Virus record (IMG/VR): IMGVR_UViG_3300045988_093513
Span: 4,841 to 68,840 of that record
From: a virus
DNA: 64,000 nt
Strand: one strand, 5' to 3'
Program-made: the position numbers and the translations under genes
Shown: positions 4,169 to 60,770 of the stretch, piece after piece
How the letters are laid out: the number at the start of each line of letters is the position of its first letter
How positions within the stretch are numbered: the first letter of the stretch is position 1
The notes under the pieces: model-generated
The model's database searches: none
What the model was told of the DNA's origin: nothing
Seen by the model: only the letters and a program-made list of their open reading frames with translations

Positions 4169-4972
4169 CTATATAGTCATGCCAGCATCCATTGCTAACT
4201 TTAACTGTTCATTCCACATAGGATTTAAAAATCTATTCTTCGTGTCGCCACTCATTTGGCATACAAAATATCCCATAGGTAACGGGCGTCCGCCACCCTT
4301 CTTAATGTAATCAGGATACGCCTGAAATGATGGCTGCTTAATCTCCCATACTGTTCTAACCACTGGGCATTTAGCAAACACGTTATGTTGAATACTAATC
4401 TTTGGCGTGGCTGATGGTGCGTGCCTATGTTCTTTCCATACACAATCAGCATTGAAGTAATCATACGCATCCTGTCTAACCATATGTCTATGTACAATGT
4501 AATGCACGTAACAATTCTTATTGACGTTGAAGTATACGATACCTTGGCTACCCTTATATAAATTTCTGTCACCTAATAGCGAGGCGACTACGCCTTCAAT
4601 ACTGATATATGTATCACTGTATACTCTGTCTGGATGATTACCAGATATAATTCCTAATAGTTTACCGCTATCATATAAAGGTTTAATATCATCAACGAGT
4701 GCATAGATTTGTTTATCGCCGCTCAATGTTTCCTCGATGATGCTACCTTTGCTATTCTTTGTCACCGTGTTAGTTGCATCACCGCCGATTACAACCTTCA
4801 CGTTATCAGGTAAGCCACTCAAGAACTCAACCTCTTTCTTAAAATAGTCTCTGTCATTTAGCCCTTCGTGTATGTCAGATAACACAGCGAGATAACCGAA
4901 ATCACCATTAACTCTACACTGTATTACGTGTTGCTTTAATGTCTCTTGAATAACTTTTTCTTGCGTAGCCAT
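4169..4972 (-). CDS. Calcineurin-like metallophosphoesterase
   Basis: Motifs 'LSDIHEG' (D-x-H), 'VIGGDATN' (GDxxD) and 'GNHP' (GNH) appear in the canonical order. Confidence 0.75.
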   Translation of the reverse strand: MATQEKVIQETLKQHVIQCRVNGDFGYLAVLSDIHEGLNDRDYFKKEVEFLSGLPDNVKVVIGGDATNTVTKNSKGSIIEETLSGDKQIYALVDDIKPLYDSGKLLGIISGNHPDRVYSDTYISIEGVVASLLGDRNLYKGSQGIVYFNVNKNCYVHYIVHRHMVRQDAYDYFNADCVWKEHRHAPSATPKISIQHNVFAKCPVVRTVWEIKQPSFQAYPDYIKKGGGRPLPMGYFVCQMSGDTKNRFLNPMWNEQLKLAMDAGMTI

Positions 4973-26000: not shown

Positions 26001-29000
26001 TTAGGTTCTACTTTTTCTTTTCCGAGAGCTGCGTTTGCTGCGCTCTCTTCACGGACGGAAGTAATTACCCAGTTATCTGCCCGACAAAATTCTTTGAGTT
26101 TAGCGAGTCTATCCTCTTCTTTGTTAGCTCCTTTATATTCTTTATACTGTTTGTCCGTTAACAGGTACTTATTTCCTTTGTAGGATACGACACGTTCTTC
26201 GCTTCTCTCTGCTGCGAACTTTCCTTTGTTTGTTCCGTATGCGTAGTTGTATACTACTTTACTAAGCTTTACATCTCGATGGCCAGGGGCTGCCTTATTT
26301 GGGTCTACCTTATGTTCTCTCTTCATCTTATCGGCGATACTTTCAATCTTAGCTTCGAGTGCTTTCGATAACAGTATCGCATCTACTTTTGTGACACCGT
26401 GTTGCACAGCAAACCCTAACTTCAGAGCTACACTACTATCCGTCGGATAGAAATGCCCAGCACCCATCATGCCAGCAGAGAGTACACCACGCTTTGCCTT
26501 ATTAATAGCGTTCTTCCACCTATTAATAAAGTTGTCTTTTGTTTTGTTGTATTTATCCTCGGTCTTAACTTTTTCTATATACCCTTTGCTACACTCTTCC
26601 CACAGGTCTTCAATCCACTTATCTGTAAATTTATTCAACCCGCTGATTGTGTCTTCGTCGTATCCGAGCACTTTCATAATCTGTTTATATTTTTCTACGG
26701 TTACCTGTCTACGTTTCCCGTTTTCTGTTACGATAAGAGACATATCGCTGATATTAATATCGTCAATGCTGGACTTGTTATCGGCTATATACTTACCAAC
26801 AAACTTACTTTCTTCAAATTCGCTTTCTGGCATCATCATTGCCGTGGTTTTAGTGTTAAGCCACGGGAATTTAGTGGTACGTCTATTTACAAGTTTATTA
26901 ACTTCCTGACCATCGACATGCATCTTGCTGATAATGTTATGGCTATAACTTAAGCCAAATAGTTTTCTACCTCTTTGGTCTTTTTGAACGTCTTCGCAGA
27001 TTTGTTTAAGCCCTTGTTCAAAGTTTCTCATGCTAACATACCAATGGTCTCTATCAAGACCTTTAGTTTCAGCGGTAGGGAATAAGCCGTTAATTTTTTT
27101 GATTAAATCAATAGCGTATTCTCGAACATTGTCTGCGTCAGAACTATCTTTATGTTGTGCAAATTCAGATTCACCAATGTCGCCATAGTTATCTCTTACT
27201 GTTCTTACGATAAATGCAATCATAAGATTTGCTTTTTCAGTAGAAGACAGGAATGCGCCATCCTGGTTCTGCCGCTTCAACATATTTTTATAAAGCCCCG
27301 TATCCAGTTCATTACATAACTGAATCTCGAATGATGTAATGGCAAGATAACGAGCTGCTTGGGCTGCTACCGCATAATCAAAACTTCTTTCGAGTGTAAG
27401 GTTGTTGTTGTCTATATAGTCGTGGTGAATTGATGTTACTGCATTTTTTTCGTTCTCCACGCCATCGCCAGTTTTATCTTGACTCTTATCTCCGATATCG
27501 TCATCGTCTTCGCTATGCTGTTCTTTACTGCCTTTGGTTTTCTTCTGCCTATTCGTTTTAGCCTCTTGCTTTTTCACGTCTTCGTTATCTACCTGCATAT
27601 ATTTATCCTTAGCTGCTTCAGCTAAGGCAATAGCTTCTGCTATTATATTGGCTTTTGAAACCGCAACAGCTCTACCATTCTTAGTTAAGAGTTCATTTCC
27701 GGCGACATTGTTTATAAATGCATCTCGTGTGAGACCAATATAATCGGAAAGTTCAATATCTGGTTGCGATACCTTATCGCTTTTTTTAGAATTACCATAC
27801 GCTGCTCGCAGAATAAATGTCTTGCCATATTCGTTTGCCTTCAGCTCAACATCTTTCGGTACTTTACTTAATGATTCTACGATATCTTCTTTAATATTAC
27901 CAAGCTTCTGCATCATTCGATATGCGTTCCAAGCTTCCTCGCCCTTATCTGTATTCACTACAGAAAGGAAAGCATCCGAGAAGGCGTAAATAAACTCACG
28001 AGTGTAGTCTTCAAAGTCTTTATCAGTACCAGTTTTCTTAAAATTATTCAGTAATTCTCTCAGGTGTTCTGCGTATGGCCCACGAACCATTTCGTTATTA
28101 ACTGCGGCGATAATTTCCATACGACCAGTGGATTTAATGCCTTGTTGTGGCTGAGCATATTGCTCTAATAACCATGGAAGTGCATCTGCAAACTTTTCCA
28201 TTCCGTATTCGTGGAGTTCTTTCGGCATACTATATGAAGACATGTCCTGAACCAACCGGTACGCTGTCTGCTTGTCCTCATCCGCACCAACAAACAGGTC
28301 GCCAGTTACGGAGTAAAGCTGTCTAGGTGTAAGCTTTGCCAGAATAATACTATTTCCACCACGGTCTACTATGTATTGCTGATATTTGCTATTCAAAACG
28401 TACCAGAACCATGTGTTTAAGCTAGCGACACCCTTAGAATTCTCAGGGTCTTGCTCCATCTTAACACGTACTCCATCATACGTTGCGATAGCTGTATGAA
28501 TAGCGCCAGGTAAGATATCGAGCAGGTCTGCGTAGGCACTTCTAAAGTCGGTCGGGTTGTCAAAATCAACAACACCATTACGGTTTGCACCGTTAGCTAC
28601 CGTCATTTTATCACGAAGCAGGTTGATACCATAAGACGCAAGAGCACCAAAGGCAGCCATGTATTGCATCTTGGCATGGAACTCTTCTTCTTTACTCTTA
28701 AATTTATGAGCTCCACCAAGAAAACTAATATACTGTTTCGCCTCTGGTAATATGGTCACTAGATTAGCGAAAGACATCCTGTTGATAGTACCGTAGTGTT
28801 TACCAACAACGTCTTTTAATTCTTTATATAACTTCCCTTTACGATACTCATTGTAGCGTTGACTTGCTTTAACGTCTACGGAGTCCTGAACAACTCCTGT
28901 CTGCACAAACTTTAACGTGGGCAGGTCTTTATCTTTTGGTAACTCCTGTGCATTATTCGCTTCACCGTTACGGCTAGCAATAATGTCGTTTATTCTATTG

Positions 29001-32000
29001 AAAGTGGCGTTCAGACTATCGAGTTCGTCCAAGAGGTCGTCTTCGCTAATATCATCTTCGTCCATAAGGTCGTCTTCGATATGAGTTTCATCCTCACTAC
29101 CTTTGTCTGGTGTACCACCATCTTCTTTGAACAGCGGGCTATCTTCTTCCTGTAATTTATGTGCTATTTTTTTCTTGTCAGTTTGTTTTGTACTGGTTTC
29201 GGAACTTTCGGTTTCGCTGCTCGTGCCATTGTTGTCGAACCGCCCCTGTTGATGTGTGTTCCTCCCAGCTTCTGTCCTGGTTTCTGTTTTGCTGTCCGTA
29301 CTACCTTTGGCATTCTTGGGTGGCTGAGTGTTTTCATTTTTCCCTCCTGTTGAAATCTTTGTAATCGAATCGTTAGATTGCACTGGCTGTTGCTGTGTAT
29401 TGCCAGTTGTATCTTTCGGTGTATTAGTATTGTCCTGCTTCTTAGGGGTGACAGCGACATTGTTATTGTTTTTGTTGGTAGCACTATTTGTATTGTCTTT
29501 TGCGTTTACACCAATGACGCTATTATAAACATCATCTGGAATGCTCTTTAGAATAGTAACGGCTGCTGGTTTTGCGGCGTCATCATCGGCTCTTCTGAAA
29601 ACTTCCAAGGCAGGTTTTGGAATATTGAGAGCATTTCTCTTATCAAGCTTGTCGATAATGTTCCGTGCTCTATCTAATCCGTTTGGTGTGTTAATATTTG
29701 CGATAACATTAACCCTTGAATTTCTATCGTTATTTACACTGTCTTCTACTGGATTGGTAGTTTTACCTACGTTCTCCGGCTCTTTCATTTCCGCCGTTAA
29801 ATAACGCTGATTTGCAGCATTTTGAACGTTTTGCACTTGCGGCTGTACTACCTGCTGTGCCACCTGTGGTCTTGCCAGACCACCAAGTGGAGACGTGTTA
29901 AGTCTATCAGTGTGTACTGGTGCTTGTGTCTGTTCTACTCTCTGCTGTGTAACTGCTTCTTGTTTTGTCATGATAGGCTTCTGTACTACTGGGGTCTGCT
30001 GTTCTGTCTGTACTTTCTGTGCTGCCTGTTCCTGCGGCTTCTGTAATTTCTGCTGAGTTTCTTCTACAACCGGTTGTTCTACCAGTTCTTCCACCGGTAC
30101 ATCAGTAACATCTACAACAGGCTGCTGTTCCTGTGTTCTTTCCTGTCTATTCTTCGCTTCCATATAAGCGTTAGGGTCAACGGCTCTAAGTACATCTCTG
30201 ATAGCATTAGTATCATCATTGTTCGCTCTATCAAGAAGTTGCTGATTAACTTTCAAGAATCTGCTCTTGGTTTTATCAGCCAATTCTTCTGCCTTACCGT
30301 TCGGGGCAAGAGAGCGAATAATTTCCTGTGCTCTCTGGATAGCTTCTGTATCAGCGTCTTTCTTTCCAACACTTTTAATAACATTTTTAATATCATTCTT
30401 TACTGCGTCTAATTCCTGTTTTGCCTGTTCAGCCTGAGCTTTCTTTTCGTTATTACGTTCTCTTACGGCATTTACTACGTTCTTTCTATCAAGGTTAGAC
30501 AGAATATAGTAAGCGGCGTTAGTGTCACCGTTTACTGCTTTATTTAACAATTCAGGAGAAAGCTTTGCATTCCCATCTGGAATATTTTCATTGATTGCAT
30601 TAATGTCTGCATTGTTATATGCTCTAGTGAGAATATCTGGCAGGTCTGCCATTTTAGCTCTAGTATCATCAACGAACTGAGACATTGCATCGTTATGTTC
30701 AATAGGCTGCGGCTCTTTTTCTACTGGAGTTGTAATTGCATTTTGCAGTACAGGTGCTTCCTGTGTGACGGTACTTGGCATAACTGGCGCTGTATTACCC
30801 TGCTGTGGCATTACAGTATCACCAGTCAGAGACATAGTATTGTCATCAACTACGTTCGGCATAAGAGGCTGTTCTACTGGTACTTCGTGTCCAATATAGT
30901 CGGACAGGTCTGTACTATCTGCCATAGCATTAGCAATACCAGTTGTCTGCATTAGGTTGTTATAGTCGTTCTTAGCTTCGGCTGTCGGGCCAAGAGAATC
31001 AATATTGTTATACAGGTAACGTCCTGCATTACGCACACCGGCTACACCTACACCAGAGACAAGTGTTGGCAAAAATGCGGAGTTGAACGAGTTGATTTCA
31101 TCGTCAGTAAAGTTGCCTCGGTTGCCATTAGCAATATCACGGAAGAAACTGCCAGCGTCAGCACGGTCATCGTCAAACTTATTAGACATTGCGTCCTGTA
31201 CACGCTGCTGCCATGCTTCCTGAAAGCCTTCGCCAAACGCATTCGTCAGTCTGTTGCCGATAAAGTCGATTGGTTTACTAGCTGTTGACAATCCATACGC
31301 AGCTCGCCCAAGCATAGTATCAGCACGTGCAGTGTCGCCTAAAAGTGCGCTAGCTACTTTACCGCCATTAGAAGCTAATGCATCGGCAATACCAGCCTTC
31401 GCAAGACCTTTTCCGGCAAGAGAGAATAAACCACCAGTAGCACCAGTAGCTACATCAATCGCAGTGTCCATGAAAGAAGAACCAATAAGTTCTGCATTCT
31501 TATATGGGTCACCTGTAAAGCTATCCCATGCCGACTGGTCAATAGTACCATCGTATACGGTGCCAATAGGTCTCTGACCAGCTGCAATCTGTGCTTCCAT
31601 GTTGTCTCTCTTGGCGTCCATATAGTTTTGACCGAAGTTAGCACCAATTTCAAGACCAGCGCTACCTAAGATACCAAGAGCAGGAAGAGCCATTCCACCG
31701 CCAGCTGCTAATGCTGCACCTGCTAACATACCCGGTGCAGAAGAACCAAGCATAGTACCAGCGTCACTGGAAAGACCATGCGGGTCAATAAGGTATCCGA
31801 GAGACCAACGAGACTTGTCTGGGTTATTATCATAGTCATTAGCCCAGTCAGAGTATCTTGCCGCCTGTCTTGTAAGGTCGCCACCAACACCAGCTAACCA
31901 TGGGCTATCTGCTACTACCCCAGCAGCAGTTAAAGCTCCGCCAAGCGTAGACTCGGCAGAGCTTGTAAAACTGTCCCAAAAACTTCCAATGGCCCCTTGG

Positions 32001-32122
32001 TCTAGGTCACGTTCAGACGGAACCCAACCAAGAGCCAGCTTATCTTGGTATTGTCTGTCTGCCTGGTCTAACGCAGCAGCGAGCTGTGCCCCTGGCTGAT
32101 AGTTATTAAACCTTACTGCCAT
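20018..32122 (-). CDS. Giant virion-associated protein (4034 aa); candidate tape-measure or ejection/polyvalent protein with a zincin-like HExxH motif
   Basis: A single uninterrupted 12.1-kb ORF. It has Gly/Ala-rich and Q/T/N-rich low-complexity linkers and long helical segments. 'VYHELMHAF' is encoded at 24476-24490. Hydrophobic stretches occur near the C-terminus (FLGTMMLFSGVISGIPMMTMISG). It is the last gene of the tail-gene run. Confidence 0.8.
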   Translation of the reverse strand: MAVRFNNYQPGAQLAAALDQADRQYQDKLALGWVPSERDLDQGAIGSFWDSFTSSAESTLGGALTAAGVVADSPWLAGVGGDLTRQAARYSDWANDYDNNPDKSRWSLGYLIDPHGLSSDAGTMLGSSAPGMLAGAALAAGGGMALPALGILGSAGLEIGANFGQNYMDAKRDNMEAQIAAGQRPIGTVYDGTIDQSAWDSFTGDPYKNAELIGSSFMDTAIDVATGATGGLFSLAGKGLAKAGIADALASNGGKVASALLGDTARADTMLGRAAYGLSTASKPIDFIGNRLTNAFGEGFQEAWQQRVQDAMSNKFDDDRADAGSFFRDIANGNRGNFTDDEINSFNSAFLPTLVSGVGVAGVRNAGRYLYNNIDSLGPTAEAKNDYNNLMQTTGIANAMADSTDLSDYIGHEVPVEQPLMPNVVDDNTMSLTGDTVMPQQGNTAPVMPSTVTQEAPVLQNAITTPVEKEPQPIEHNDAMSQFVDDTRAKMADLPDILTRAYNNADINAINENIPDGNAKLSPELLNKAVNGDTNAAYYILSNLDRKNVVNAVRERNNEKKAQAEQAKQELDAVKNDIKNVIKSVGKKDADTEAIQRAQEIIRSLAPNGKAEELADKTKSRFLKVNQQLLDRANNDDTNAIRDVLRAVDPNAYMEAKNRQERTQEQQPVVDVTDVPVEELVEQPVVEETQQKLQKPQEQAAQKVQTEQQTPVVQKPIMTKQEAVTQQRVEQTQAPVHTDRLNTSPLGGLARPQVAQQVVQPQVQNVQNAANQRYLTAEMKEPENVGKTTNPVEDSVNNDRNSRVNVIANINTPNGLDRARNIIDKLDKRNALNIPKPALEVFRRADDDAAKPAAVTILKSIPDDVYNSVIGVNAKDNTNSATNKNNNNVAVTPKKQDNTNTPKDTTGNTQQQPVQSNDSITKISTGGKNENTQPPKNAKGSTDSKTETRTEAGRNTHQQGRFDNNGTSSETESSETSTKQTDKKKIAHKLQEEDSPLFKEDGGTPDKGSEDETHIEDDLMDEDDISEDDLLDELDSLNATFNRINDIIASRNGEANNAQELPKDKDLPTLKFVQTGVVQDSVDVKASQRYNEYRKGKLYKELKDVVGKHYGTINRMSFANLVTILPEAKQYISFLGGAHKFKSKEEEFHAKMQYMAAFGALASYGINLLRDKMTVANGANRNGVVDFDNPTDFRSAYADLLDILPGAIHTAIATYDGVRVKMEQDPENSKGVASLNTWFWYVLNSKYQQYIVDRGGNSIILAKLTPRQLYSVTGDLFVGADEDKQTAYRLVQDMSSYSMPKELHEYGMEKFADALPWLLEQYAQPQQGIKSTGRMEIIAAVNNEMVRGPYAEHLRELLNNFKKTGTDKDFEDYTREFIYAFSDAFLSVVNTDKGEEAWNAYRMMQKLGNIKEDIVESLSKVPKDVELKANEYGKTFILRAAYGNSKKSDKVSQPDIELSDYIGLTRDAFINNVAGNELLTKNGRAVAVSKANIIAEAIALAEAAKDKYMQVDNEDVKKQEAKTNRQKKTKGSKEQHSEDDDDIGDKSQDKTGDGVENEKNAVTSIHHDYIDNNNLTLERSFDYAVAAQAARYLAITSFEIQLCNELDTGLYKNMLKRQNQDGAFLSSTEKANLMIAFIVRTVRDNYGDIGESEFAQHKDSSDADNVREYAIDLIKKINGLFPTAETKGLDRDHWYVSMRNFEQGLKQICEDVQKDQRGRKLFGLSYSHNIISKMHVDGQEVNKLVNRRTTKFPWLNTKTTAMMMPESEFEESKFVGKYIADNKSSIDDINISDMSLIVTENGKRRQVTVEKYKQIMKVLGYDEDTISGLNKFTDKWIEDLWEECSKGYIEKVKTEDKYNKTKDNFINRWKNAINKAKRGVLSAGMMGAGHFYPTDSSVALKLGFAVQHGVTKVDAILLSKALEAKIESIADKMKREHKVDPNKAAPGHRDVKLSKVVYNYAYGTNKGKFAAERSEERVVSYKGNKYLLTDKQYKEYKGANKEEDRLAKLKEFCRADNWVITSVREESAANAALGKEKVEPNLVKGNVTEFFAKKEGSKPGDTNYSTDHGVLQSSGTVVGAITTLLHDYFNIDESGISNNVIVKAVLAINNTLPKEALINNGLNGYIQKVAKEKNESEATVRERVMKQIKADVNRFVHLEQMEIAGRARNTSLIKKFGTSHNPQNKPIFSEGPNEFRDDVNAISLRVDKKDKRFVVVNKKPKFDYSDEETKESGYINSWAYTKLREAILGALNIMDYQDGYYVVKKLDITDSSPIKNIKGRVDIHDIDSTKWKAKNKLEPYENPIATLLQYMGSVDKSDLKEEYGKDIPYTIEDLMADPNYNYLMMAHNDSAMGSDGLITSLHTFSYELAQKDKLSYTDIANLCSLFTIASKRLKGLDSANKTVDILDKLLKSVTTRPELFNSNQSYSVKNVDLPNAIDIIYGKQLHELKPLTVDAIRDLSSELLGTPKEDVIRMSKENTAFLGANLKGHLDKNVNVQFAHTLFVNRASNTLGVAPYIASRLNKDSGYKESMGRIVADDHRSTVYHELMHAFTDEAVTIDVAKGKYRLALPSDANWKDEKFGGLAVDRNAQELPEDLKDDAEEAIGRALKKELEKSLKILNNNDSLLAGQILAITELVDVNKLVEDTAAMWTIANLIGYDGTKTGDARFVSKVGATTLGMFYKNVDASNYETLVMSMILPSIIFGAKTVNKEIPLFYSTKQLITETYSHLDTTPPNTTGDNERRNIAGSDSSAFMTTWLYKSAELLRELDVQDPKHEIRNKDKKRMREQLKKAAESISELTSNSNFGVLNFKTQTNQHATVKKKKEKKKVDVGTSKGVITNARDVSHDAGSPRGKFMQLLYAIANKRNKTFSQTSTSGLNHAKDIKLALIPGMRWLEELVNKEDADRLFDESQRSIAYQQELNAKSDAYVKQLQQLLTIDGNELQTKALRQYFNTEINVNSDRGRDLVELFDLPYEAGQDERCKNRSSSGKNAMLKVYDDDIFFVLHNQPDKATAMAKMNDKIEKMKEYYDKKKKKFYKNQAFWYREDTGTLVFYACKDERMQNGKFKNLFIAYPSNEDGTGVEGQARMRARLQKQVLRECEQFRRKLMKQRGYAQPVIDGFIASQALYRALLMNAYEREQKRALQNDDIINRVHTGFLHAYAPRYYARYILQKEVWHEITEEQANKNEKSKDEGFIVQRGDKYYHVITYSIGSFESKRDRSKYRNEHPIGQNERYVEKTRDEWLQEQGGGRTDIVGNVDTSIGTLTEKDVSRGKKEAETDISGRLAKFIRKKFNDSEEWQGDDSIERVVNALRNMDKEDEEEFGKYKPRLIQTARMIRVGKDKVQTFRQVSDALKANGAQYLAANYARERTSNSGLYSHDVIGSLKHYLHTVNSVEALTPFYRDMTQTIYKYTGRNYDRTRRDSYYSPYNIMCELVDNMNGRDKPADAFMRRLSVMVVDAIYAVPGMRNILNACGVYLPDMWLPALLHNSIAVNVYLKLGMFNVSTALAQYAQLANVYALGGESAFAYAMKKMPGILTKAHKPSDILKGEFDVSQYGKEIQQVMADLYLTKKGKSLLEQEGEKAFDEAIKRGDKTAIELQVFDEMLDTLNGKDGESVMNDMATQLGNAGSAYEGESIIDKMPKTGKKILDLSMSGFRGADLACRLFAALVAQNLIDTSPKYKAFRESKSEIGEEEYNAQRMATIRDFVYRTNFNFNRATDPLLLAKGGQLAKCVFQFASYGFQTFHFMYWMLKNKKSTELKRFLGTMMLFSGVISGIPMMTMISGMSQAITGTNPEDWIKAFILKAAGRRNDQFSRDIGEALCYGIAAPVFGVDISKKVGLSDIMKDPTDLRNLGGPSLGTAIDFSSAAGASFDAIMYDKYTTDQLMFAWLKAVPAASRWLQAARGQYYSYSKLMPKTEYQSMSDVDRAKNIMGFNPIENKLNTDLNRFVTDINQDYSNSAKDVMIAYVNNPTEANLRKLQSYGKTPEQAHKAVDKYIKPKVTAEQAEKMVTKSDNEEADIVRSNVRALGNLLN

Positions 32123-52873: not shown

Positions 52874-53233
52874 TTACATGTGGTCAACTGTCATAAACTC
52901 TGGGTTGTCCTTCAGCCACTGTTTGATATACTTGTTGAAGCTCTCGTGGTCGCCACACGCCATAGCTTCTTTAGCACACTGGAGTGTGAGCTCTGTCGGG
53001 TCGTTCCAGCATTCATAAGGGATACGCCCAAGCCTTCGCCCACCTTTATGCTTCCCGAGATACGGGTCTTTCTTTCTATCCTCGTAGCAGGAACGCATAA
53101 TGTCAGTTGCGTCCCAAGTATTAGTCAGTGACCAGTTACCATGTTTATCGACATCAACGTCTTGTCTTACAATGTTATTACTCATGTTATCTCCTTTTGA
53201 TATAAGAAAAAAGGGGAGCCATAGGCTCCCCAA
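52874..53233 (-). CDS. Hypothetical virion protein
   Basis: 119 aa. Confidence 0.5.
   Translation of the reverse strand: MGSLWLPFFLISKGDNMSNNIVRQDVDVDKHGNWSLTNTWDATDIMRSCYEDRKKDPYLGKHKGGRRLGRIPYECWNDPTELTLQCAKEAMACGDHESFNKYIKQWLKDNPEFMTVDHM
53203..53233 (-). terminator. Rho-independent terminator after the capsid gene
   Basis: ggggagcc-ata-ggctcccc hairpin, followed on the minus strand by T6. Confidence 0.65.
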
Positions 53234-53254
53234 TCTTCTATACGAGAACCTCCG

Positions 53255-54216
53255 TTACGGCGCAACGGTTGGAGTAATAGTCTCCACGACAACTGGTTTC
53301 GGGTTAACCTTACCAGTCAGGTTCTTAATACGAGCGTTAGCATTCGGTGCGGTACATTCGATAGATGCTACGCCAGTGATTACCTTTTCCTTATAAGTAC
53401 CGACTCTCGGCGGTTCTTCAGTATGGAACGGAATAAGGTAGCCAAGTTTCCAATACTGCGGGTCGAGCAGGTCAACCACATCGTCAGAGTACATACGATG
53501 GGCTTCCAGACGAAGAGAACCAAAGTCAGTCTCGATGATTTCGAGAGAGGTGGTGATACTCTTGTCACCTGCCTGGCGAATCGGCAGTGCACCCTGAGTA
53601 AAGTCGGCGCATCCACGCTTATTACGTGCGGACATAATAGCGACGGACGGGTCGCCACCACGCTGCCAGGTCAGCTGCATTGCGTCATTCAGAAGGTCGA
53701 AAGTAAGGTTGCCCTTAGCAACGTCCTTCGCTGCGTCAATGCAGTTCTGGAATGTGATGGAGCCCATCTTAGTTTCTTTAACTTTACCTTCACCGCTGGA
53801 AACACCATGACCATTTGCGTCATACTTGACGGAGTTCATAGCGCCTTCCGGAGTGTCATACAGATAGAACGTATTAGCGTCCTTAACTGCTACGTAGTAG
53901 GCAACGTTTTCTTTACATACAGCACCACCACGAACGATGAGGGCATCGCCGTTTACAAAGCCGTGGTCGTTCAGAGTGAACTCACCAAAAGCTACGGTTA
54001 CACCTTTCAGTTCATCTTCAAGGAAGTACGGAATACCACCAAAAGTACCAGCAACGTTTTCAGACATCGGGGTTGCAGTGGTGTTGTTTACGATAGCATA
54101 TTCAAGGTCACCTGCGATTTCCTTGCCAGCCTTAACGAACTGGTACGCTACTTCGTCACGAACACCGTACTTTTTGATAGCCTGAGTGATATCAGAGATG
54201 TTATCGTTTGTGTTAA
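53255..54216 (-). CDS. Major capsid protein, 3' exon (the frame continues upstream of the annotated Met with no start codon)
   Basis: The in-frame upstream sequence 'VNTNDNISDITQAIKKYGVRDEVAYQFVKAGKEIAGDLEYAIVNNTTATP' precedes MSEN, and there is no ATG or RBS. A TGA lies at 54218-54220. The gene sits after the scaffold gene in a portal-scaffold-capsid order. Confidence 0.6.
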
Positions 54217-54972
54217 CTCATACTTTCATATGAGACCAGACTATATTATACTTAATCGGTGTTATCGTATAGTCGTTGGGATTTCATACGCTTTTCACAG
54301 TAATTATTTAACCTTTTCTGTTTACGTAAAATATTGAACTTTAGTCCAGATTCTATAAATGACTTTAGGTTCATAGTGAAACTCAGTTGTACTTTGTTTT
54401 TGGTTCGTATTTCTCTTGTCTTACCACACGATACACCAAAGGATTGTAGCATCCTTTTTATATCGTATGTCCAAGAGTATGTAGTTCCGTACCCCATCAT
54501 CCAATTTGTATTACCATTTGGATTGGCACGCTGTGAGACCCAACCATCAGAATCAAGTACACCTTCTAAAAATTCTTTCTTTAACTCTTTGTCCCATTGA
54601 TACACATAGTCTGGGATGTATCTACATCCAGCTGTGTCATCAACGAATATCTTAAATTCTTTAGAACATACTTGAAGATAGTATTTGTTAGTCCCTACCC
54701 TTTGGTGGACTTTCACATCTCTATTGATAAAACGTGATAAGTAATCAGCAACTTTACCAATAAACTCTTTATCAATACATTCAAATGAGTATGCGTACGT
54801 GTTCCCTCTTTTGAAAACACTAGCATCTCCAAAGTAACAACCAAGTAAATAAGCGTATGTCTTATCTGCGGGTTTCCTATTCATAATACATATCCTTTCT
54901 ATTTTTACACTTTGGTAAGAAGGGCTTTAAGGGTTTCCTGCATATGGATAACTTTTATATGGGCAAACATTT
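54217..54972 (-). mobile_element. Putative group I intron interrupting the capsid gene (boundaries approximate)
   Basis: Proposed 5' exon ends in U after ...CATGGG; proposed intron ends in G before TTAACACAAAC. It carries a free-standing LAGLIDADG ORF. Confidence 0.5.
54252..54884 (-). CDS. LAGLIDADG homing endonuclease (double-motif), intron-encoded
   Basis: Motif 1 'AYLLGCYFGDASV' and motif 2 'FLEGVLDSDGWVS'. Confidence 0.8.
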   Translation of the reverse strand: MNRKPADKTYAYLLGCYFGDASVFKRGNTYAYSFECIDKEFIGKVADYLSRFINRDVKVHQRVGTNKYYLQVCSKEFKIFVDDTAGCRYIPDYVYQWDKELKKEFLEGVLDSDGWVSQRANPNGNTNWMMGYGTTYSWTYDIKRMLQSFGVSCGKTREIRTKNKVQLSFTMNLKSFIESGLKFNILRKQKRLNNYCEKRMKSQRLYDNTD

Positions 54973-55279
54973 ACCCATGCATGAACTGCTGAACAGTGTT
55001 GTACATCCAACGTCTCGGCACGGTTTCCGTGGTATCGAAGTTGATAACTTCAGGATGCTTGTTCACCATTGCCGGACGGAGAGAATCTCTCAGCCATTCA
55101 TGTTTAGTGGATACTACGGTAGTTTTACCGAACATCTGTGTAAGTTTAGTTTTATCTGGGTCGAGGTTGGTAATGAAGTCAGACATATCTCTAACAGTAC
55201 CAACGACGTTATAAGAGCGAAGGGCAGAACCTTTATTATGCGGGGCTGCTGCACCTGTAGCTGGCATACCTACTGCCAT
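54973..55279 (-). CDS. Major capsid protein, 5' exon
   Basis: SD AAAGAGAGG lies upstream of the ATG at 55279. The ORF terminates just inside the proposed intron, and its reading frame joins the 3' exon if the two are spliced. Confidence 0.55.
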
Positions 55280-55302
55280 TGAGCTGTTACCTCTCTTTCA
55301 AT

Positions 55303-56048
55303 TTATACGCCAAGCTCTTTCGCAAACCTAGATACGTATGCCGCCTGTTGGTCGTTAGTCATCTGACCAAGCGCAGCGTAGTCCATAGTTTTCTGTGCCT
55401 GTGGCATTGCACCACGGTTATTTGTCGGTTCGACATACGGTGGACGTACCTGCGGCTGGACAGGCCGAGGCATAGGCTGCGGAGCCTGCTGTGGCTGGTT
55501 GCCACGATGATAATACATATTCGATACGGCCTGCATGTAATTGTCAAGCACTTCCGCGTTACCAGTCTTGAGAGCGTCCTGTACTTCCACATACATTTTG
55601 TACGGGAGGTTCTGGAGACTACTCAGAGCGAGCTGGTTAATCGTGTCGAAGTTCGGGTCTTGTCTGTATTTATTAGCAACAGATGCAATTCTTTGAGAAG
55701 CAGCTGCCTTTTCGGCTTCCTGCTGTTTCATTTCGTTAACCCTCTGTAGGGTGGCTGCTTTGACATTACCAACTTCATTGACATATGCTGCCATATGTTT
55801 ACTGTTGTACTCGTCAAAATCTTCACCAAAGAGCTGTTTAACTCGGTCTTTGCAATACGTATCAACCTGGTCGAGGTACGCTCTCTGGTCAGCCATAGCA
55901 CGCTGCTGTACTTCTTCTGGGGACATCTGCGGCTGCTGGGGCTGAACATTCTGGGGCTGAGGGTTGTTCGCAAACTGCTGCATCATCATCTGTCGCTGCT
56001 GTTCGAGAGCCTGACGCTGAGCTGCGAGTTCCTGTGTTTTCCTAGTGT
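55303..56048 (-). CDS. Scaffolding protein, Q-rich C-terminal part (annotated ATG at 55989 plus a ~20-codon in-frame upstream extension)
   Basis: There is no SD before the ATG at 55989. Upstream in-frame 'DTRKTQELAAQRQALEQQRQ' continues the Q-rich repeat pattern up to the TAA at 56050-56052. Confidence 0.5.
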
Positions 56049-56332
56049 CTTAACCTTCGAGTAAAGTCGTTAATTTTACCCCGTCATTCCACAGGAGAAT
56101 GACTGCTGCATATTTCTATGCAGAAGAGACTATTTCTTCACCTTCTCCTTTCAGAGGTCAGGTGTCTGGCACTTCCGTCCACTTGGACGTACTCCCTGCA
56201 ACGGGATAGTCGTTACGGGTTCCCAGCATAGCTGGGCTTCCCACGAGATTGCCCTCGTCTTTACGTTAGGGTGTTCCTCGTTTTCACCAGATTTAAATCA
56301 AGGATTTCTCCAAGAAGTGACCTATTTTGTTA
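56049..56332 (-). mobile_element. Possible ORF-less group I-like intron in the scaffold gene (boundaries approximate)
   Basis: A ~285-nt ORF-free, GC-enriched spacer containing at least four stable hairpins (cccagc/gctggg, cgtcca/tggacg, ctgcat/atgcag, cattc/gaatg). The exons on each side look like halves of one scaffold protein. Confidence 0.35.
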
Positions 56333-56672
56333 AGTCAGCCTGTCGCATATAACCATTACGCATTTCATCCATAGAAACCTGTACGTCCTGTCCATCTACA
56401 CGGACAGTCTGCATTTCCGGCTGCGGCTGTGGTACTTCCTGCGGCTGTTCTTGGACGGGTTCTGGTTCATCATCATAGTCGCCTGTCGGTTCTCCGAAAA
56501 AGGCGTCGGCAAAAGTGACGTCCCCGTTCTCGTCAATACCAAATGCAGGTTCATCAGCGTCATTGTTCTGCGGTGCAGTCTGCGCATCCGGTGTTTCCAC
56601 TGGCGCAGTTGTTGCAGGAACAGGTTCCTGAGCTGGTTCTACCATTGGCATTCCGTTCTGCATTTCTTCCAT
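56322..56672 (-). CDS. Scaffolding protein, acidic N-terminal part (start at MEEMQNG; SD AAAGGAGG)
   Basis: SD AAAGGAGGAATTT precedes the ATG at 56672. The protein is acidic and P/Q-rich. The longer ORF-track call begins upstream of the SD. Confidence 0.55.
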   Translation of the reverse strand: MEEMQNGMPMVEPAQEPVPATTAPVETPDAQTAPQNNDADEPAFGIDENGDVTFADAFFGEPTGDYDDEPEPVQEQPQEVPQPQPEMQTVRVDGQDVQVSMDEMRNGYMRQADLTK

Positions 56673-56789
56673 AAATTCCTCCTTTTTGCACTCCGTAAAG
56701 GTTGGTGCAGTAAAATATATATACGCCAATAACCATGCAAAATTTGTTCGTTAAATAACGAGGTTTTACACGGTTTTGACGAAATTAAC

Positions 56790-56865
56790 TGGCACGGATT
56801 GCTAGAATCGAACTAGCGAATTGCTGGGTCAAAGCCAGCCGCCTTCACCACTTGGCTAAACCCGT
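56790..56865 (-). tRNA. tRNA-Gln (anticodon UUG), with CCA encoded
   Basis: Hand-folded cloverleaf. Acceptor stem ACGGGTT/AATCCGT has one G.U pair. U8 and A9 are present. D-arm is GCC-aagtggtgaa-GGC with G18/G19. Anticodon stem is GCTGG/CCAGC with loop CTTTGAC. T-arm is GCTAG-TTCGATT-CTAGC. Discriminator is G, then CCA. Confidence 0.8.
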
Positions 56866-56886: not shown

Positions 56887-57723
56887 CTACCTATTATTCT
56901 GGTTGTATGCACGCAATGCATTAAATCCACGGATAAGTGGGTCGTGTTCATCGTGATATGCAGACGGGTTTGCATCCCTGTATGTCTGAGCATCAAGCTG
57001 ATAATAGTCAGCAGGGCTAGGCTGTGCATAAGCGTTATCCATAGCGTAGTAGTCTGCTACGGAATTACCTGGCATATCGAAGCCTTCAGAAGAACCAGTG
57101 GAACCAGAGTCATCTGGTACACCAAGCGCCATAGCATCCTGAGCAGCTGCCGGTCCATAGTTCTGCCGCATAGCAGCTTCATACTCCATCTGCTTACGAA
57201 GTTTTTCTCTTTCATACGCTTCATACTGAGCCTGTGTATGGTCGATACCACCATTGTTTACAAGGTATTCATGCATACCCCAGTTCATCGGTGTCTTATC
57301 ACGGTTAGCAATTTGTTCGTCTGTCCATCCTGCGTCTTTCATAAGCTGAATACCTCTATCGTTGATAGTATCGCCAGTATTAGCATATGTCAGCGGTGCA
57401 TTAGGTGTACCAGAAGGTAAATTACGTGTAGCAAATTCATAAGAACCGGCCTTAGGTGTCGGCTTCAGCTGACTACCGTTATCGATAGCTGCCTGCCCAC
57501 GGTTAGCGGACCGTACCCAAGCGTTACTATCATCACGGGTCGGTGCCATAAACCTATTACGAATACGTTCACGCTCTTTGTCATATTCAGACATGGGAGC
57601 GTTTTCCTGTGCAGTTGGCGTACTGCCATGAATCTGATTGTAAACATCTGTGAGAGCTTTAGCTGCTTCATATCTTTGAACATCCGCCTGTCGAGGGATA
57701 CTCCTCGTATACTTAATTGCCAT
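56887..57723 (-). CDS. Hypothetical head protein (between the portal and scaffold genes)
   Basis: 278 aa; start overlaps the portal stop. Confidence 0.55.
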   Translation of the reverse strand: MAIKYTRSIPRQADVQRYEAAKALTDVYNQIHGSTPTAQENAPMSEYDKERERIRNRFMAPTRDDSNAWVRSANRGQAAIDNGSQLKPTPKAGSYEFATRNLPSGTPNAPLTYANTGDTINDRGIQLMKDAGWTDEQIANRDKTPMNWGMHEYLVNNGGIDHTQAQYEAYEREKLRKQMEYEAAMRQNYGPAAAQDAMALGVPDDSGSTGSSEGFDMPGNSVADYYAMDNAYAQPSPADYYQLDAQTYRDANPSAYHDEHDPLIRGFNALRAYNQNNR

Positions 57724-60700
57724 TAATAACCTCCTACTCCATTAGTCGGTTCAGCAGGTGCGCCATTAGGAACCCTATTATCGGCTGGCTGCTGACCAAT
57801 TTGTTTGTCTGGAGAGAGGGCGTCACTACCTTGTCGCACAGTAGAAGTGACCGCTCCTCCTGCTCCTTGTGGTGCAGATACATTCTGCATAGGAACCGTA
57901 CTCTGACCAGTGTTGTTTGTATTTGTTGGTAACGTATGATTCAAGAATACTACCTGCACATAGGGGGGGAGTGAGTAGAGAACCTGAATCGGTAACGAGC
58001 CATACTGGAAGTAGTAAGCCACAACATCAGGGGGGAGAGTCTGAAGTGTTGCCTGAATGATTTGTGCTTCAAGCATAGTACGCTGTTGCGCAACAACAGG
58101 GTCAGTAATATAGTCACCTGTATTTTTAATACCCATATTTTCCATCCAACGTTTCGTGATGTTATAAATGTTATGTGGAGTTGCAACCGCAACACCAGTA
58201 GCGTTTACTTGCATGATAGCAGTCATGAGCGTCTGAAGCTGGGTATTCATAGCTTCTTTACTCTGGATGGAGAGACCAGCGTTTACAACCAGATCGAAAG
58301 AGCCAGACAAGTCATCTGGTTTGATTTCCATTGGTTCCCCTGTTAATCGAATAACAGTGTTTTGGTCAATAAACTTTTGGTTCAAAGATATAAGAAAACG
58401 ATATAGTTCATATACACCCGTTTCAGCAAACATACGAGCAATAAGTTCCAGTCGCTGATTAGATGCATTCATGATGGTATTGATACCGCTTGCTGTGTTA
58501 TGTGTTACGGTATAGTGTTTGCCTACGCAGAACTGACCATCTTCGGCATCAACAGTTAAACACCGCATTGGAATAATATCGGTCGGTTCGATTAATACTA
58601 TTTTAACCCTATCAACACTACGTTTAGACTGTACATACTTGTTTGCTTTTCGGCTTAATCTAAATGGATTATCGAGGCAACTAATAGTTAAATGCCAATA
58701 TGTACGACCTTCTTTAGCTAACTTGCCAGGGAATTGCTCTGACTTAGAATAATTCCAGCCAAAGGAACAAATCAAGCGTTCTACATCGTCCAATAACTGC
58801 CCGTTTGCTTGAGAGAAAATAGCCAACGAACCAGAATGGTGACAACCATCAGTGTCCATAAGTCCACGAAGAAGTTCCATACGCTGTCTATAAGAAGCAC
58901 TAAAGAAAATCTCCGGTATGTGTTTACAGTTATCTTTCATGTCGTCGTATCTTGCATCGCGGGCAATGTGTAGTTTTCTAAGGATGGTGTGCAAGTCTGT
59001 GCCAACTATGTCATACGTAATAGCCTTTCCTGCGTTTTGGTGTGAAGACGGTCTGATAAAACCACCTCTGAACTTTGCCCATTCGGACATGGCGTCCACT
59101 ATTTCTTTATCCATTGAGGTAAAGCGATTGGTGTGTAAGCAGCCGTCGCCCAAGAACACACCGAGGATATACGGGTCTATTGGTAATTCAATATCACCGT
59201 TGTTATCAGGACGGTATACCCTGTCAATAAACAATGGCTGTTTATACTTGTGCGCCAACTGGAACAAAGTGTCGGTATCAATGGTTTTACGTTTCCTATG
59301 AGGGCCAAACACTGTCCACAAATGTTCTCCGCCCGCTTTAAGGACTTCGCCGTTAGAGAACTTGATTTCATATGCTCGTTCTGGGTCATGAATAGTATGG
59401 GCTTTAATAACCATGGTCGGTTTACCATTCTGCCCAACAATCATATCACCGTCAACAATGTCTTTTAACAGCTTACTGGAACCGTTGGCCATCGGGACAG
59501 GCGTATTGATGTCTAGCATTTTATTCAAACTGGAAGCATCAAGACCTTGGTTATATCGCGTGACGCCTGTACGCTGTTCCTTCTGTCCCTCAGTCCATTC
59601 GAGAAAGTTGAACGTATAAGGAGCAATCTGGTTGACAGGCATAGACATTGCAACGTCATTCATCTGATACCCTGGCTTCTTACGAATGACGGCACGACCT
59701 TTGTTGAAGTCATCAACATTGATTGCGTCTGGTGCCAGAATCATCTTAGGGTCATTCGTCAGTGCTAGGTTGTGGATAATCTGACGAATCAGTGCCACCT
59801 TCAAATTCTGGATTTCACCAACGAGTTCGGCATAAGAACGCTTAGACCAAATACGGTGTGGGTCTTGTGTCGGGGAAATAGCGAAGAATGGATGTCTACC
59901 CATATAGTTTGGTTCGCAACGAAGGATATGGTCTTGGCACAGTGTGATAATCATATCCTCAAGGATACCATCACCATTAATATCAATTTTCGTATAACAC
60001 TCGTACAGAGTAACCTCTTCACGGGCTTCTTCTGCGGCAGAGTGGAAACCATAGTATTGATCGCCAAGCACCTCTTCCATTTCTGTATCAGCTTCATCGA
60101 GTCCGTATTTTGAGTGCCAATGCTCTGACTTTATCTCATCAACGTTAGCATATACGCCCTGTCGTTCCATCTTTCTGAGGTAAGACATAGTAACCCGTTT
60201 CTTATGAGCAACAAAGTTTGCTTCATCAAGAGTTTTTGCGTCTGGCGAATACAAGAAATCAGAAATAAGAATGTTCTCAATCTTTGGAGCATTCTTCAAA
60301 TAAAACGTGGAGTCGTAAATAACAGTATAATCGCCATACTTATCGGGGGCAGAGATAGATTCGACCTTTACACCAGTGTTAATCAGGGCTTGTAAGCTCT
60401 GAAAGTTGAGAACACACTGTACAGGTTCATAGCCCTCCTCTCTGTCCCAGTAACATTTAACAACACCAAGACCAGTAATGAGTGCATCTTTCATCCAATT
60501 ATACAGAATCGGGTAGAAATGGTTCTGTCTCTGTAACTGGAAAGAAATAAGGTCTTGCATAATCTCTGCGTTATGGTCATCCTGCGCATCTACACCAGAG
60601 ATACTGATTACACTCTCCCCGCCGGTAAATACCTTCATGAGCGATGGCAATGCCCATTCAATAGTATCTGTTACATCGGTAGATACTATAGATGATGTTT

Positions 60701-60770
60701 TACTAAGCTTTGGGAACATCTTTTTGTAATATTCTTTATCGGCAAAGTAAATCTGATATCGCTCTTTCAT
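57723..60770 (-). CDS. Portal protein carrying a ~328-aa LAGLIDADG intein
   Basis: Portal-like N- and C-terminal regions with an inserted intein (see the mobile_element entry). The annotated ATG lacks an SD, and a strong SD lies 114 nt upstream in frame. Confidence 0.75.
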   Translation of the reverse strand: MKERYQIYFADKEYYKKMFPKLSKTSSIVSTDVTDTIEWALPSLMKVFTGGESVISISGVDAQDDHNAEIMQDLISFQLQRQNHFYPILYNWMKDALITGLGVVKCYWDREEGYEPVQCVLNFQSLQALINTGVKVESISAPDKYGDYTVIYDSTFYLKNAPKIENILISDFLYSPDAKTLDEANFVAHKKRVTMSYLRKMERQGVYANVDEIKSEHWHSKYGLDEADTEMEEVLGDQYYGFHSAAEEAREEVTLYECYTKIDINGDGILEDMIITLCQDHILRCEPNYMGRHPFFAISPTQDPHRIWSKRSYAELVGEIQNLKVALIRQIIHNLALTNDPKMILAPDAINVDDFNKGRAVIRKKPGYQMNDVAMSMPVNQIAPYTFNFLEWTEGQKEQRTGVTRYNQGLDASSLNKMLDINTPVPMANGSSKLLKDIVDGDMIVGQNGKPTMVIKAHTIHDPERAYEIKFSNGEVLKAGGEHLWTVFGPHRKRKTIDTDTLFQLAHKYKQPLFIDRVYRPDNNGDIELPIDPYILGVFLGDGCLHTNRFTSMDKEIVDAMSEWAKFRGGFIRPSSHQNAGKAITYDIVGTDLHTILRKLHIARDARYDDMKDNCKHIPEIFFSASYRQRMELLRGLMDTDGCHHSGSLAIFSQANGQLLDDVERLICSFGWNYSKSEQFPGKLAKEGRTYWHLTISCLDNPFRLSRKANKYVQSKRSVDRVKIVLIEPTDIIPMRCLTVDAEDGQFCVGKHYTVTHNTASGINTIMNASNQRLELIARMFAETGVYELYRFLISLNQKFIDQNTVIRLTGEPMEIKPDDLSGSFDLVVNAGLSIQSKEAMNTQLQTLMTAIMQVNATGVAVATPHNIYNITKRWMENMGIKNTGDYITDPVVAQQRTMLEAQIIQATLQTLPPDVVAYYFQYGSLPIQVLYSLPPYVQVVFLNHTLPTNTNNTGQSTVPMQNVSAPQGAGGAVTSTVRQGSDALSPDKQIGQQPADNRVPNGAPAEPTNGVGGY
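58497..59480 (-). mobile_element. Intein with LAGLIDADG endonuclease domain in the portal protein
   Basis: N-terminal Ser, block B 'GEVLKAGGEHLW', LAGLIDADG motifs 'LGVFLGDGCL' and 'LLRGLMDTDGCH', and C-terminal 'TVTHN' followed by a Thr +1 residue. Confidence 0.65.

Follow-up and report, generated by a model that had tools for sequence, protein, structure and literature searches.

How is a complete major capsid protein expressed from a gene into which a second, unrelated gene has been inserted? The question is raised by a stretch of 64,000 nucleotides (nt) from the IMG/VR virus record IMGVR_UViG_3300045988_093513—positions 4,841 to 68,840 of that record, the whole stretch being called the window hereafter and providing all coordinates—in which two pieces of an SU10-type capsid gene are separated by an open reading frame (ORF) for a LAGLIDADG homing endonuclease. 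The answer proposed here, to which we assign a probability of roughly 0.9, is that a group I intron bearing the endonuclease gene would be spliced out between 54973 and 54204, yielding a capsid protein of 418 amino acids (aa). The preliminary description of the locus had already proposed that a group I intron of about 0.75 kilobases (kb) with a LAGLIDADG gene interrupts the capsid gene, and this is now borne out by intron-less homologues, by selection on codons that have no start of their own, and by covariation among near as well as distant relatives. According to both the ORF list and the raw sequence, all the features of the capsid locus lie on the minus strand, the principal ones being as follows (coding parts as predicted):

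54973 to 55279, minus strand: capsid exon 1, 307 nt, with the codons of Met1 to Gly102 and the first base of that for Tyr103, U54973 being its last base.
54205 to 54972, minus strand: the putative group I intron, 768 nt, beginning AAAUGUUUGCCCAU and ending UUAACACAAACG, with G54205 as its terminal base.
54252 to 54884, minus strand: the LAGLIDADG homing-endonuclease gene, 210 aa, matching Pfam LAGLIDADG_3 in two stretches (E = 5.8e-12).
53255 to 54204, minus strand: capsid exon 2, 950 nt including the stop codon, its first bases AUAACAUC completing Tyr103.

The reading frames largely agree with what had been described. The ORF of 270 aa that begins with an ATG (53255-54067) has a frame open upstream for exactly 50 sense codons, until the TGA at 54218-54220, the first 45 full codons of exon 2 thus lying upstream of the ATG picked by gene callers; neither a start codon nor a ribosome-binding site is present for residues 103-151; the 102-aa ORF follows the scaffold gene directly, starting 23 nt past the stop of the preceding 228-aa scaffold ORF with the Shine-Dalgarno-like motif AGAGAGG upstream; and a free-standing ORF with both LAGLIDADG motifs lies between the two pieces. 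Only the claim that the 102-aa ORF (54971-55279) ends a few codons into the gap did not survive, its TAA stop (54973-54971) straddling the splice site. The Pfam profile SU10_MCP (PF17236), which stands for SU10-type major capsid proteins of the HK97 fold, is matched at positions 7-83 in the 102-aa ORF and 89-292 in the downstream frame, and the two pieces—colinear with the homologues—are therefore adjacent halves of one domain. The solved SU10-type capsids 9ny2_A and 7z45_A align unbroken over the junction region (the query being the 422-aa join of the preliminary description), and with the same query a protein-collection search found two protein clusters of 418 aa (P0001 and P0002), 95-96% identical at 100% query coverage, together with many shortened capsid calls of 266-304 aa; gene callers shorten the capsid to 270-302 aa in every intron-carrying relative. 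The ORFs, the LAGLIDADG motifs and the split SU10_MCP match of this locus far exceed chance.

The 45 codons at 54202-54068, which have no start codon in the window, were compared with those of eight intron-containing relatives and the intron-less locus L001. Against L002 there are 19 synonymous and 0 non-synonymous codon differences, 27 of the 38 variable codon columns over all the sequences are synonymous only, and the stretch holds the nearly invariant capsid positions D123, E124, Y127, Q128, K131 and K134. Judged by this pattern, the orphan codons are under strong purifying selection, i.e. translated, and, as the frames stand, their residues could be expressed only via joining to exon 1. 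It might be argued that no splicing takes place and that a free-standing homing-endonuclease gene has split the capsid into two separately translated, co-assembling polypeptides, some genes of T4-like phages being indeed split by free-standing homing-endonuclease genes. The upstream piece does have its own start codon, ribosome-binding site and stop, gene callers report three separate ORFs in every relative, and Rfam calls no intron here. Under such an arrangement, however, residues 103-151 would be under strong purifying selection while lacking a start codon and a ribosome-binding site; the one alternative start considered, a GTG used for protein P0003 in L002, is not conserved and reads GTT in the window. 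Moreover, the covariation between exon wobble bases and the guide, together with that in P3, P6 and P9.0 (see below), finds no explanation without an RNA structure, and hardly any change is seen at the two ends of the endonuclease ORF, not even at synonymous sites, so that two separate polypeptides are considered very unlikely.

Concerning the exact junction, marked by ^ in what follows, the boundaries of the intron are set by the intron-less alleles L001, L031 and L032, the latter two being IMG/VR contigs with an uninterrupted capsid gene. In the DNA alignment L001 reads ...TTCATGCACGGCT^ACAACATCTCTGAT... and the window ...TTCATGCATGGGT[768 nt]ATAACATCTCTGAT..., from which it follows that exon 1 ends at U54973, the intron spans 54972-54205 (...ACAAACG) and exon 2 starts at A54204, the joining restoring the Tyr103 codon U^AU. 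The sequences of P0001, P0002, L001, L031 and L032 all read ...CAYGGNU^AYAACAUC... without an insert, the site in L001 being CAGCAGTTCATGCACGGCTACAACATCTCTGATATCACTC; the predicted 40-mer of ligated exons is GTTCAGCAGTTCATGCATGGGT^ATAACATCTCTGATATCACT, and the predicted protein would run ...QQFMHGYNISDITQAIK over the junction. The spliced product has 418 aa, equal in length to P0001 and P0002, and the continuous 418-aa homologues from intron-less relatives read straight over the junction. Independently, the covariation in P9.0 puts the 3' splice site at G54205, and this base behaves as the terminal guanosine of a group I intron: it is invariant, it is placed by P9.0, and P10 pairs with the 3' exon.

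The preliminary description had placed the 5' junction correctly at U54973, but its 3' junction, G54217^U54216, lies 12 nt too early, the correct one being G54205^A54204; the predicted intron length of 756 nt becomes 768 nt, and of the expected product of about 420 aa the continuity stands, whereas the length of 422 aa gives way to 418. That earlier version nevertheless deserves consideration as an alternative in which a real intron ends with G54217, U54973 is joined to U54216, and FNTND replaces Tyr103, the joined sequences reading CAUGGGU^UUAACACAAACGAUAAC in RNA and ...GGGT^TTAACACAAACGATAAC in DNA. It is favoured by the position of G54217 at the end of the P9 hairpin, where the Rfam model stops, by a frame open from 54217 onwards, and by a possible P10-like pairing of 4 base pairs (bp), UGUU/AACA, the motif UAACA occurring twice near the 3' end. 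The base G54217 exists as described, but the P9 hairpin ends with it. The 422-aa join appears in the protein alignment as ...QQFMHG-FNTND-NISDIT..., the four extra residues being absent from all 12 aligned homologues, which read ...HG-Y-N[IV]SD... or equivalent. The intron-less DNA alleles align to A54204, the two bases preceding G54205 covary with J7/9 as P9.0 requires, and the 12-nt tail ending in G recurs in the family. A splice site at G54217 is therefore given very little credence, and the 418-aa product is retained.

The next question is whether the interruption has the structure of a group I intron. The elements recognized in it, listed from its 5' to its 3' end, are:

54966 to 54972, minus strand: P10 strand AAAUGUU (intron nt 1-7), pairing with nt 3-9 of exon 2 (54202-54196).
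54959 to 54964, minus strand: internal guide sequence GCCCAU, the 3' strand of P1, pairing with the exon sequence AUGGGU (54978-54973).
54947 to 54952, minus strand: 5' strand of P3, GUUAUC, pairing with GAUAAC (54261-54266), with the compensatory form GUAAUC/GAUUAC in L009.
54937 to 54942, minus strand: 5' strand of P4, UGCAGG, pairing with CCCGCA (54867-54872) with one invariant A·C mismatch, and followed by J4/5 AAA.
54894 to 54924, minus strand: a P5a-type hairpin, CCCUUCU...AGAAAGG, with 90.9% of cells paired and one-sided changes only.
54852 to 54859, minus strand: 5' strand of P6, CAUACGCU, pairing with AGCGUAUG (54285-54292), 100% paired.
54270 to 54274, minus strand: 5' strand of P7, GACUA, preceded by J6/7 ...CCCAAC and pairing with UAGUC (54239-54243), forming a pseudoknot with P3.
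54244 to 54260, minus strand: a 17-nt linker, ACCGAUUAAGUAUAAUA, at the place expected for P8, containing the endonuclease stop codon.
54217 to 54234, minus strand: P9 hairpin CUCAUAU-GAAA-GUAUGAG, 100% paired and placed on the final hairpin in the Rfam model.
54205 to 54216, minus strand: the 3' tail UUAACACAAACG, of which AC (54207-54206) pairs with GU (54236-54235) as P9.0, ending with G54205.

These pairings were evaluated on introns gathered from the clade of the window (L002-L010, L018 and L022, with capsids 73-96% identical to that of the window) and from more distant relatives (L014/L023, L017, L019, L024 and L025). The covariation set A3, scored with a hand-derived model, comprises 11 distinct sequences, from each of which 548 nt of the ORF body had been cut. 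In this set 95.9% of cells are paired, compared with 29-47% after a shift of the 3' partners by 1-3 columns, and eight pairs show two-sided changes (two in P1, one in P10, one in P3, two in P6 and two in P9.0), a number reached by 0 of 500 shuffles. P1 is 100% paired in the 11 sequences, all of which have the splice-site wobble U54973·G54964 with the 5' uridine typical of group I, and two of its pairs change in step with the wobble positions of the codons for His and Gly (CG in 8 and UA in 3 sequences; GC in 7, CG in 3 and AU in 1), the forms observed being CAUGGGU/GCCCAU, CACGGGU/GCCCGU, CAUGGAU/GUCCAU, CACGGCU/GGCCGU and CAUGGCU/GGCCAU. P10 has 89.6% of cells paired and one pair changed on both sides (GC/AU/GU), while P6 has two such pairs (in L009, CAUUCGCC/GGCGAAUG) and two more with wobble changes, its loop holding 559 nt of the endonuclease ORF. 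P9.0, consisting of the two bases after UAGUCUG and the two before the terminal G, is paired in 11/11 with both pairs covarying (AU in 8 and GC in 3; UA in 7 and CG in 4), in the forms GU/AC, AC/GU and AU/AU. An outward extension of P9 by one pair was also tried and fails, the variable flanking bases being those of P9.0.

In the distant relatives the strands were chosen solely by their position beside conserved anchors. P3 is complementary in every case tested, with seven different sequences; P4 is UGCUGG/UCAGCA or UGCGGG/UCCGCA, and P5 is CCU/AGG, CCC/GGG or UCC/GGA, so that the P4-P5-P6 domain with its A-rich J4/5 is found with compensatory changes in P6 and covariation of P4 and P5 at a distance, the window clade itself having the A·C in P4. 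Of the P3-P7 pseudoknot, P3 thus varies in a compensated manner, while P7 fits the consensus and is invariant in the window clade as well as in the seven more distant relatives where it could be located. The locus L017 has a textbook guide, with a 7-bp P10 (ACAGUGU/ACACUGU) directly followed by a 7-bp P1, and tails of the type UAACAA...G are alike in six complete distant relatives (L014, L017, L019, L024, L025 and L026, L023 repeating L014). The strongest evidence for group I in these data is the slid-partner control, the anchor-defined helices of the distant relatives and the covariation of P1 between exon and intron.

The scan with the Rfam group I model that had been proposed as a check misses the intron at threshold. 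With the gathering score of 50 bits for RF00028 (Intron_gpI), the Rfam scan of the window has no intron call in the capsid region, its sole Intron_gpI match being at 56106-56341 (84.5 bits). In permissive scans the capsid region scores 17.5 bits as a whole, its 5' half 13.7 bits and its 3' half 14.9 bits; Intron_gpI is the sole family matched over the whole region, and its E-value is the lowest both in the scans of the two halves and in the relatives, whose halves are placed by Rfam on P3-P6 and P7-P9 with 19-26 bits. Several elements—J4/5 AAA, P7 GACUA/UAGUC (GACUA...AUAUAGUC), J8/7 ...AUA and the P9 with its GAAA loop—fit the Rfam consensus with high posterior probability, and the segment of L024 that matches the P4 of the window is put on P4. 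The consensus elements are thus shared, while the total scores (13.7-17.5 in the window, 19-26 in the relatives) stay below 50, and the model RF00028 as built does not capture the window intron.

A number of observations weigh against the proposed group I intron and should be considered together. The RF00028 scores are below threshold not only in the window (at best 17.5) but also in the capsid introns of the relatives (at best 26), with none of those in 12 related loci reaching it. The A3 sequences are closely related, with a mean column identity of 97%, and the shuffle control therefore overstates the significance, the slid-partner control and the distant relatives carrying more weight; the pairing model was, in addition, derived from the same sequences on which it was scored, and P7, never varying, obtains no support from covariation. 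The minimum-free-energy fold of the ORF-deleted intron (z = -3.07) recovers nothing beyond P1, P9 and portions of P5a and P7, its missing most of the comparative model being expected because the core is pseudoknotted. The P4 mismatch A·C is present in 11/11 introns of the window clade, and no P8 hairpin was found, the 17-nt linker being unable to form a stable one. With a core atypical in these two respects, self-splicing without a protein cofactor is not assured. Taken together, group I identity would rest on the comparative evidence and not on Rfam.

The lack of a P8 hairpin is shared by the relatives with an intron at the same site (site 1), L017 and L019, while the hairpin is present in L014 and L025, whose introns occupy a second site. 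Three substitutes were examined and rejected: a 4-bp mini-hairpin of A·U pairs only, AUUA/UAAU, is broken in L019; an 11-bp long-range pairing of the linker with intron nt 412-422 is at about chance level and is disrupted in L008 and L009 by uncompensated substitutions; and a 10-bp pairing with intron nt 126-135 is likewise at about chance level, with no covariation. The window intron is also without P2 and P7.1/P7.2. Features of this kind could indicate that the insertion is a decayed, non-splicing remnant and the capsid allele a pseudogene in a defective phage, in favour of which may be counted the missing P8, the A·C mismatch in P4 and the 9-nt deletion of L020 in the P4/J4/5 region. At least 10 diverged phage contigs of nearly full length share this architecture, however, their exons and endonuclease ORF being intact, the compensatory changes indicate ongoing selection for pairing, and the exons are under purifying selection; a remnant is thus regarded as extremely unlikely. 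As for L020 itself, a contig labelled human gut, the missing 9 nt comprise the last part of the 5' strand of P4, J4/5 and the beginning of P5 (CCATATGC^TTAAAGCC), and this copy may be either a decayed intron or the product of an assembly error.

According to the splicing model favoured here, the capsid gene would be transcribed as one precursor mRNA from 55279 to 53255 on the minus strand, and the guide GCCCAU would pair with the exon-1 end AUGGGU, giving a P1 whose U·G lies at the 5' splice site. P3 to P7 and P9 would make up the core, with P9.0 and P10 positioning the terminal G54205 and exon 2, and two transesterifications would join U54973 to A54204, restoring Tyr103 (U^AU) in the mRNA of a 418-aa capsid. 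Catalysis by the RNA itself is a prediction, as are the activity and the target of the endonuclease.

The protein encoded by the intron exhibits the motifs YLLGCYFGDAS and FLEGVLDSDGW, i.e. those of a single-chain LAGLIDADG enzyme with two motifs, and the acidic residues D20 and D111 of these motifs are, like G114, invariant in 5 homologues, 28-83% identical to it. It matches the PHROG 4645 endonuclease and shows a weak similarity to I-DmoI, the closest solved match (E = 0.011). The ORF begins within P5, passes through P4' and P6 and terminates after P3'. P5', P4' and P6 are also encoded by its first ~28 nt, and P6', J6/7, P7 and P3' by its last ~55 nt; both ends are nearly invariant even at synonymous sites, as would be expected of a sequence constrained by protein and RNA alike. 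The 3' strand of the P5a-type hairpin contains the ribosome-binding site of the endonuclease gene, AAAGGA, which the hairpin may sequester, possibly with some regulatory role.

An intein or a group II intron would be other ways of accommodating such an ORF. LAGLIDADG domains do occur in inteins, one of which is probably present in the neighbouring portal gene, and LAGLIDADG ORFs in some group II introns were reportedly described by Toor and Zimmerly in 2002. The intein reading is refuted already by the reading frames, the endonuclease ORF being out of frame with the exons and stops—including the TAA at the exon-1 junction—lying on both sides, and Pfam recognizes no Hint domain in it; with regard to group II, no such family scored in any Rfam scan, and the helices found are those of group I. 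The chance that either explanation applies is close to negligible.

Concerning the mobility of the group I intron, its GC content is 34.6%, compared with 46-49% in the exons, and of the IMG/VR relatives, 3 contigs have an occupied and 2 an empty site. The intron of L010 is 92% identical to that of the window, while its exons are only 73-81% identical, suggesting a recent lateral transfer; in the other nine relatives compared, the divergence of the intron is within about 7 percentage points of that of the exons. A second site, 18 codons downstream (A^YQ), is occupied in L014/L023, L024/L027 and L025, with LAGLIDADG proteins ~31% identical, and L025, which is a close relative of the window capsid, has an intron at site 2 but none at site 1. 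In L016 a third interruption (VVDV^IETDFG) encloses another ORF with a LAGLIDADG motif, as judged from the reading frames alone. LAGLIDADG introns are found in the related SU10-type capsid genes at two or more sites, probably three. In co-infection the endonuclease presumably cuts intron-less capsid alleles (target ~TTCATGCAYGGNT^AYAACATCTC), and the repair of the cut allele would copy the intron in.

The genes preceding the capsid contain further insertions, the features of this region being:

56049 to 56332, minus strand: scaffold-gene intron, 284 nt, a group I intron without ORF, RF00028 84.5 bits.
56790 to 56865, minus strand: tRNA-Gln (anticodon UUG), flanked on one side by the ORF that follows the portal gene and on the other by the scaffold gene.
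57723 to 60770, minus strand: portal ORF, 1015 aa as compared with 701 aa in L001, with an insert at about 58497-59519.

The break in the scaffold gene is at U56333^A56048, where, once more, a Tyr codon is divided behind its first base; the two pieces are the ORFs 56322-56729 and 55303-55989. The scaffold intron is conventional, having two additional hairpins between P7 and P3'. In L001 and L006 the scaffold gene is continuous (361 aa), and in L002 it is split around an HNH/NUMOD4 ORF. The portal insert of ~314-341 aa has Hint and LAGLIDADG_3 domains, ends ...THN^T and is probably an intein, 650 of 701 residues outside it being identical to L001. Between portal and scaffold there is, in addition to the tRNA gene, an unannotated ORF of 278 aa (56887-57723); six related contigs (L001, L002, L006, L008, L009 and L011/L012) likewise have an Rfam tRNA match where the tRNA gene of the window would lie. 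Just past the capsid stop, at ~53195-53232 on the minus strand, the sequence as read shows a GC-rich inverted repeat (GGGGAGCC-UAU-GGCUCCCC) with a stretch of U behind it, resembling an intrinsic terminator. The segment 46255-48425 of the minus strand, a few genes away from the head genes on their downstream side, encodes a pyridoxal phosphate-dependent enzyme of Cys/Met metabolism (PF01053) as well as a sodium:dicarboxylate symporter (PF00375), both possibly auxiliary metabolic genes, the relatives having radical SAM genes at a comparable place. The late region contains one ORF of 4034 aa (20018-32122, minus strand).

With regard to the origin of the phage, a megablast search of 53000-56400 against 50,697 phage records gave no match, and tblastn with the capsid found only distant homologues, 24-33% identical and mostly from Pseudomonas phages, with no cultured close relative. 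The related contigs are ~66-72 kb long, and the phage is probably an uncultivated one derived from the gut. The label of a Firmicute phage used in the preliminary description is plausible but weakly supported, by two hits only: one contig of a relative is binned with a metagenome-assembled genome of Lachnospiraceae, and a capsid homologue with 53% identity occurs on a Veillonella genome contig.

That introns occur in essential structural genes of phages, as had been stated for those of Firmicutes, is already known, the group I introns in the capsid genes of the lactococcal phage Tuc2009 and the mycobacteriophage LittleE (PMC3706429) and the introns in the major capsid protein genes of crAss-like phages of the Delta and Zeta groups (PMC7886860) preceding the window case; intron-dense jumbo phages of the gut have been described as well (PMC12880540). 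The capsid-gene cases have in common with the window a group I (or most likely group I) intron in the most highly expressed structural gene, carrying an endonuclease gene and varying in presence among close relatives. The similarity extends, in LittleE, to a 5' exon ending with U, an intron ending with G and an intron protein described as related to the LAGLIDADG enzyme I-CreI. The window case differs from them in its capsid family, SU10-type (PF17236), and its uncultivated phage lineage, as well as in an endonuclease gene co-oriented with the capsid gene, its ORF overlapping core helices; and while the splicing of LittleE was demonstrated by reverse transcription PCR and N-terminal sequencing (PMC3706429), that of the window intron is predicted from sequence.

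As for other phage introns, the window intron shares the U·G in P1, the P3-P7 pseudoknot, the guidance by P9.0 and P10 and an endonuclease ORF in a peripheral loop with the classical introns of T4, SPO1 and Twort, from which it differs in lacking P2, P7.1/P7.2 and P8 and in scoring below the Rfam threshold. The introns of T4 td, nrdB and nrdD, of the SPO1 DNA polymerase gene and of Twort orf142 belong to subgroup IA2, have P2, P7.1/P7.2 and P8, encode GIY-YIG or HNH enzymes and home between co-infecting phages, LAGLIDADG enzymes being uncommon in phage introns. In organelles, LAGLIDADG endonuclease/maturases such as I-AniI of the Aspergillus cob intron and that of the yeast bI3 intron are proteins that can help a weakened ribozyme to fold, and here, too, the LAGLIDADG ORF lies inside a group I intron and overlaps structural RNA; the window protein is, by comparison, short (210 aa, about the size of I-DmoI), and any maturase activity of it would be pure speculation. 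A broader version of this idea—that the site-1 introns (the window clade, L017 and L019) have lost P8, weakened P4, and splice adequately for the most abundant protein of the virion only with the aid of their own LAGLIDADG maturase—is considered unlikely, although, if true, it would be the first such case for a phage, and the family would constitute a reservoir of compact (~210 aa) LAGLIDADG enzymes missed by current covariance models.

Based on the above comparisons, three traits of the window case are uncommon but not unprecedented: its enzyme is of the LAGLIDADG class and not HNH or GIY-YIG, its reduced core goes unrecognized by Rfam at threshold, and one capsid family has multiple insertion sites. 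Since gene callers shorten the capsid and Rfam remains silent, capsid-based phylogeny, structure prediction and proteomics for this gut-phage lineage would use a protein without its N-terminal third. In the window three head-assembly genes located close together—portal, scaffold and capsid—each appear to host a different self-splicing element; with the several capsid sites of the relatives, this makes the group a convenient natural system for the study of homing and intron turnover in uncultivated phages. No general concept is changed thereby, group I introns in capsid genes and intron-rich gut phages having already been documented; the value of the finding lies mainly in annotation and in the natural homing system, and only the missing P8 and a possible maturase role could raise its importance.

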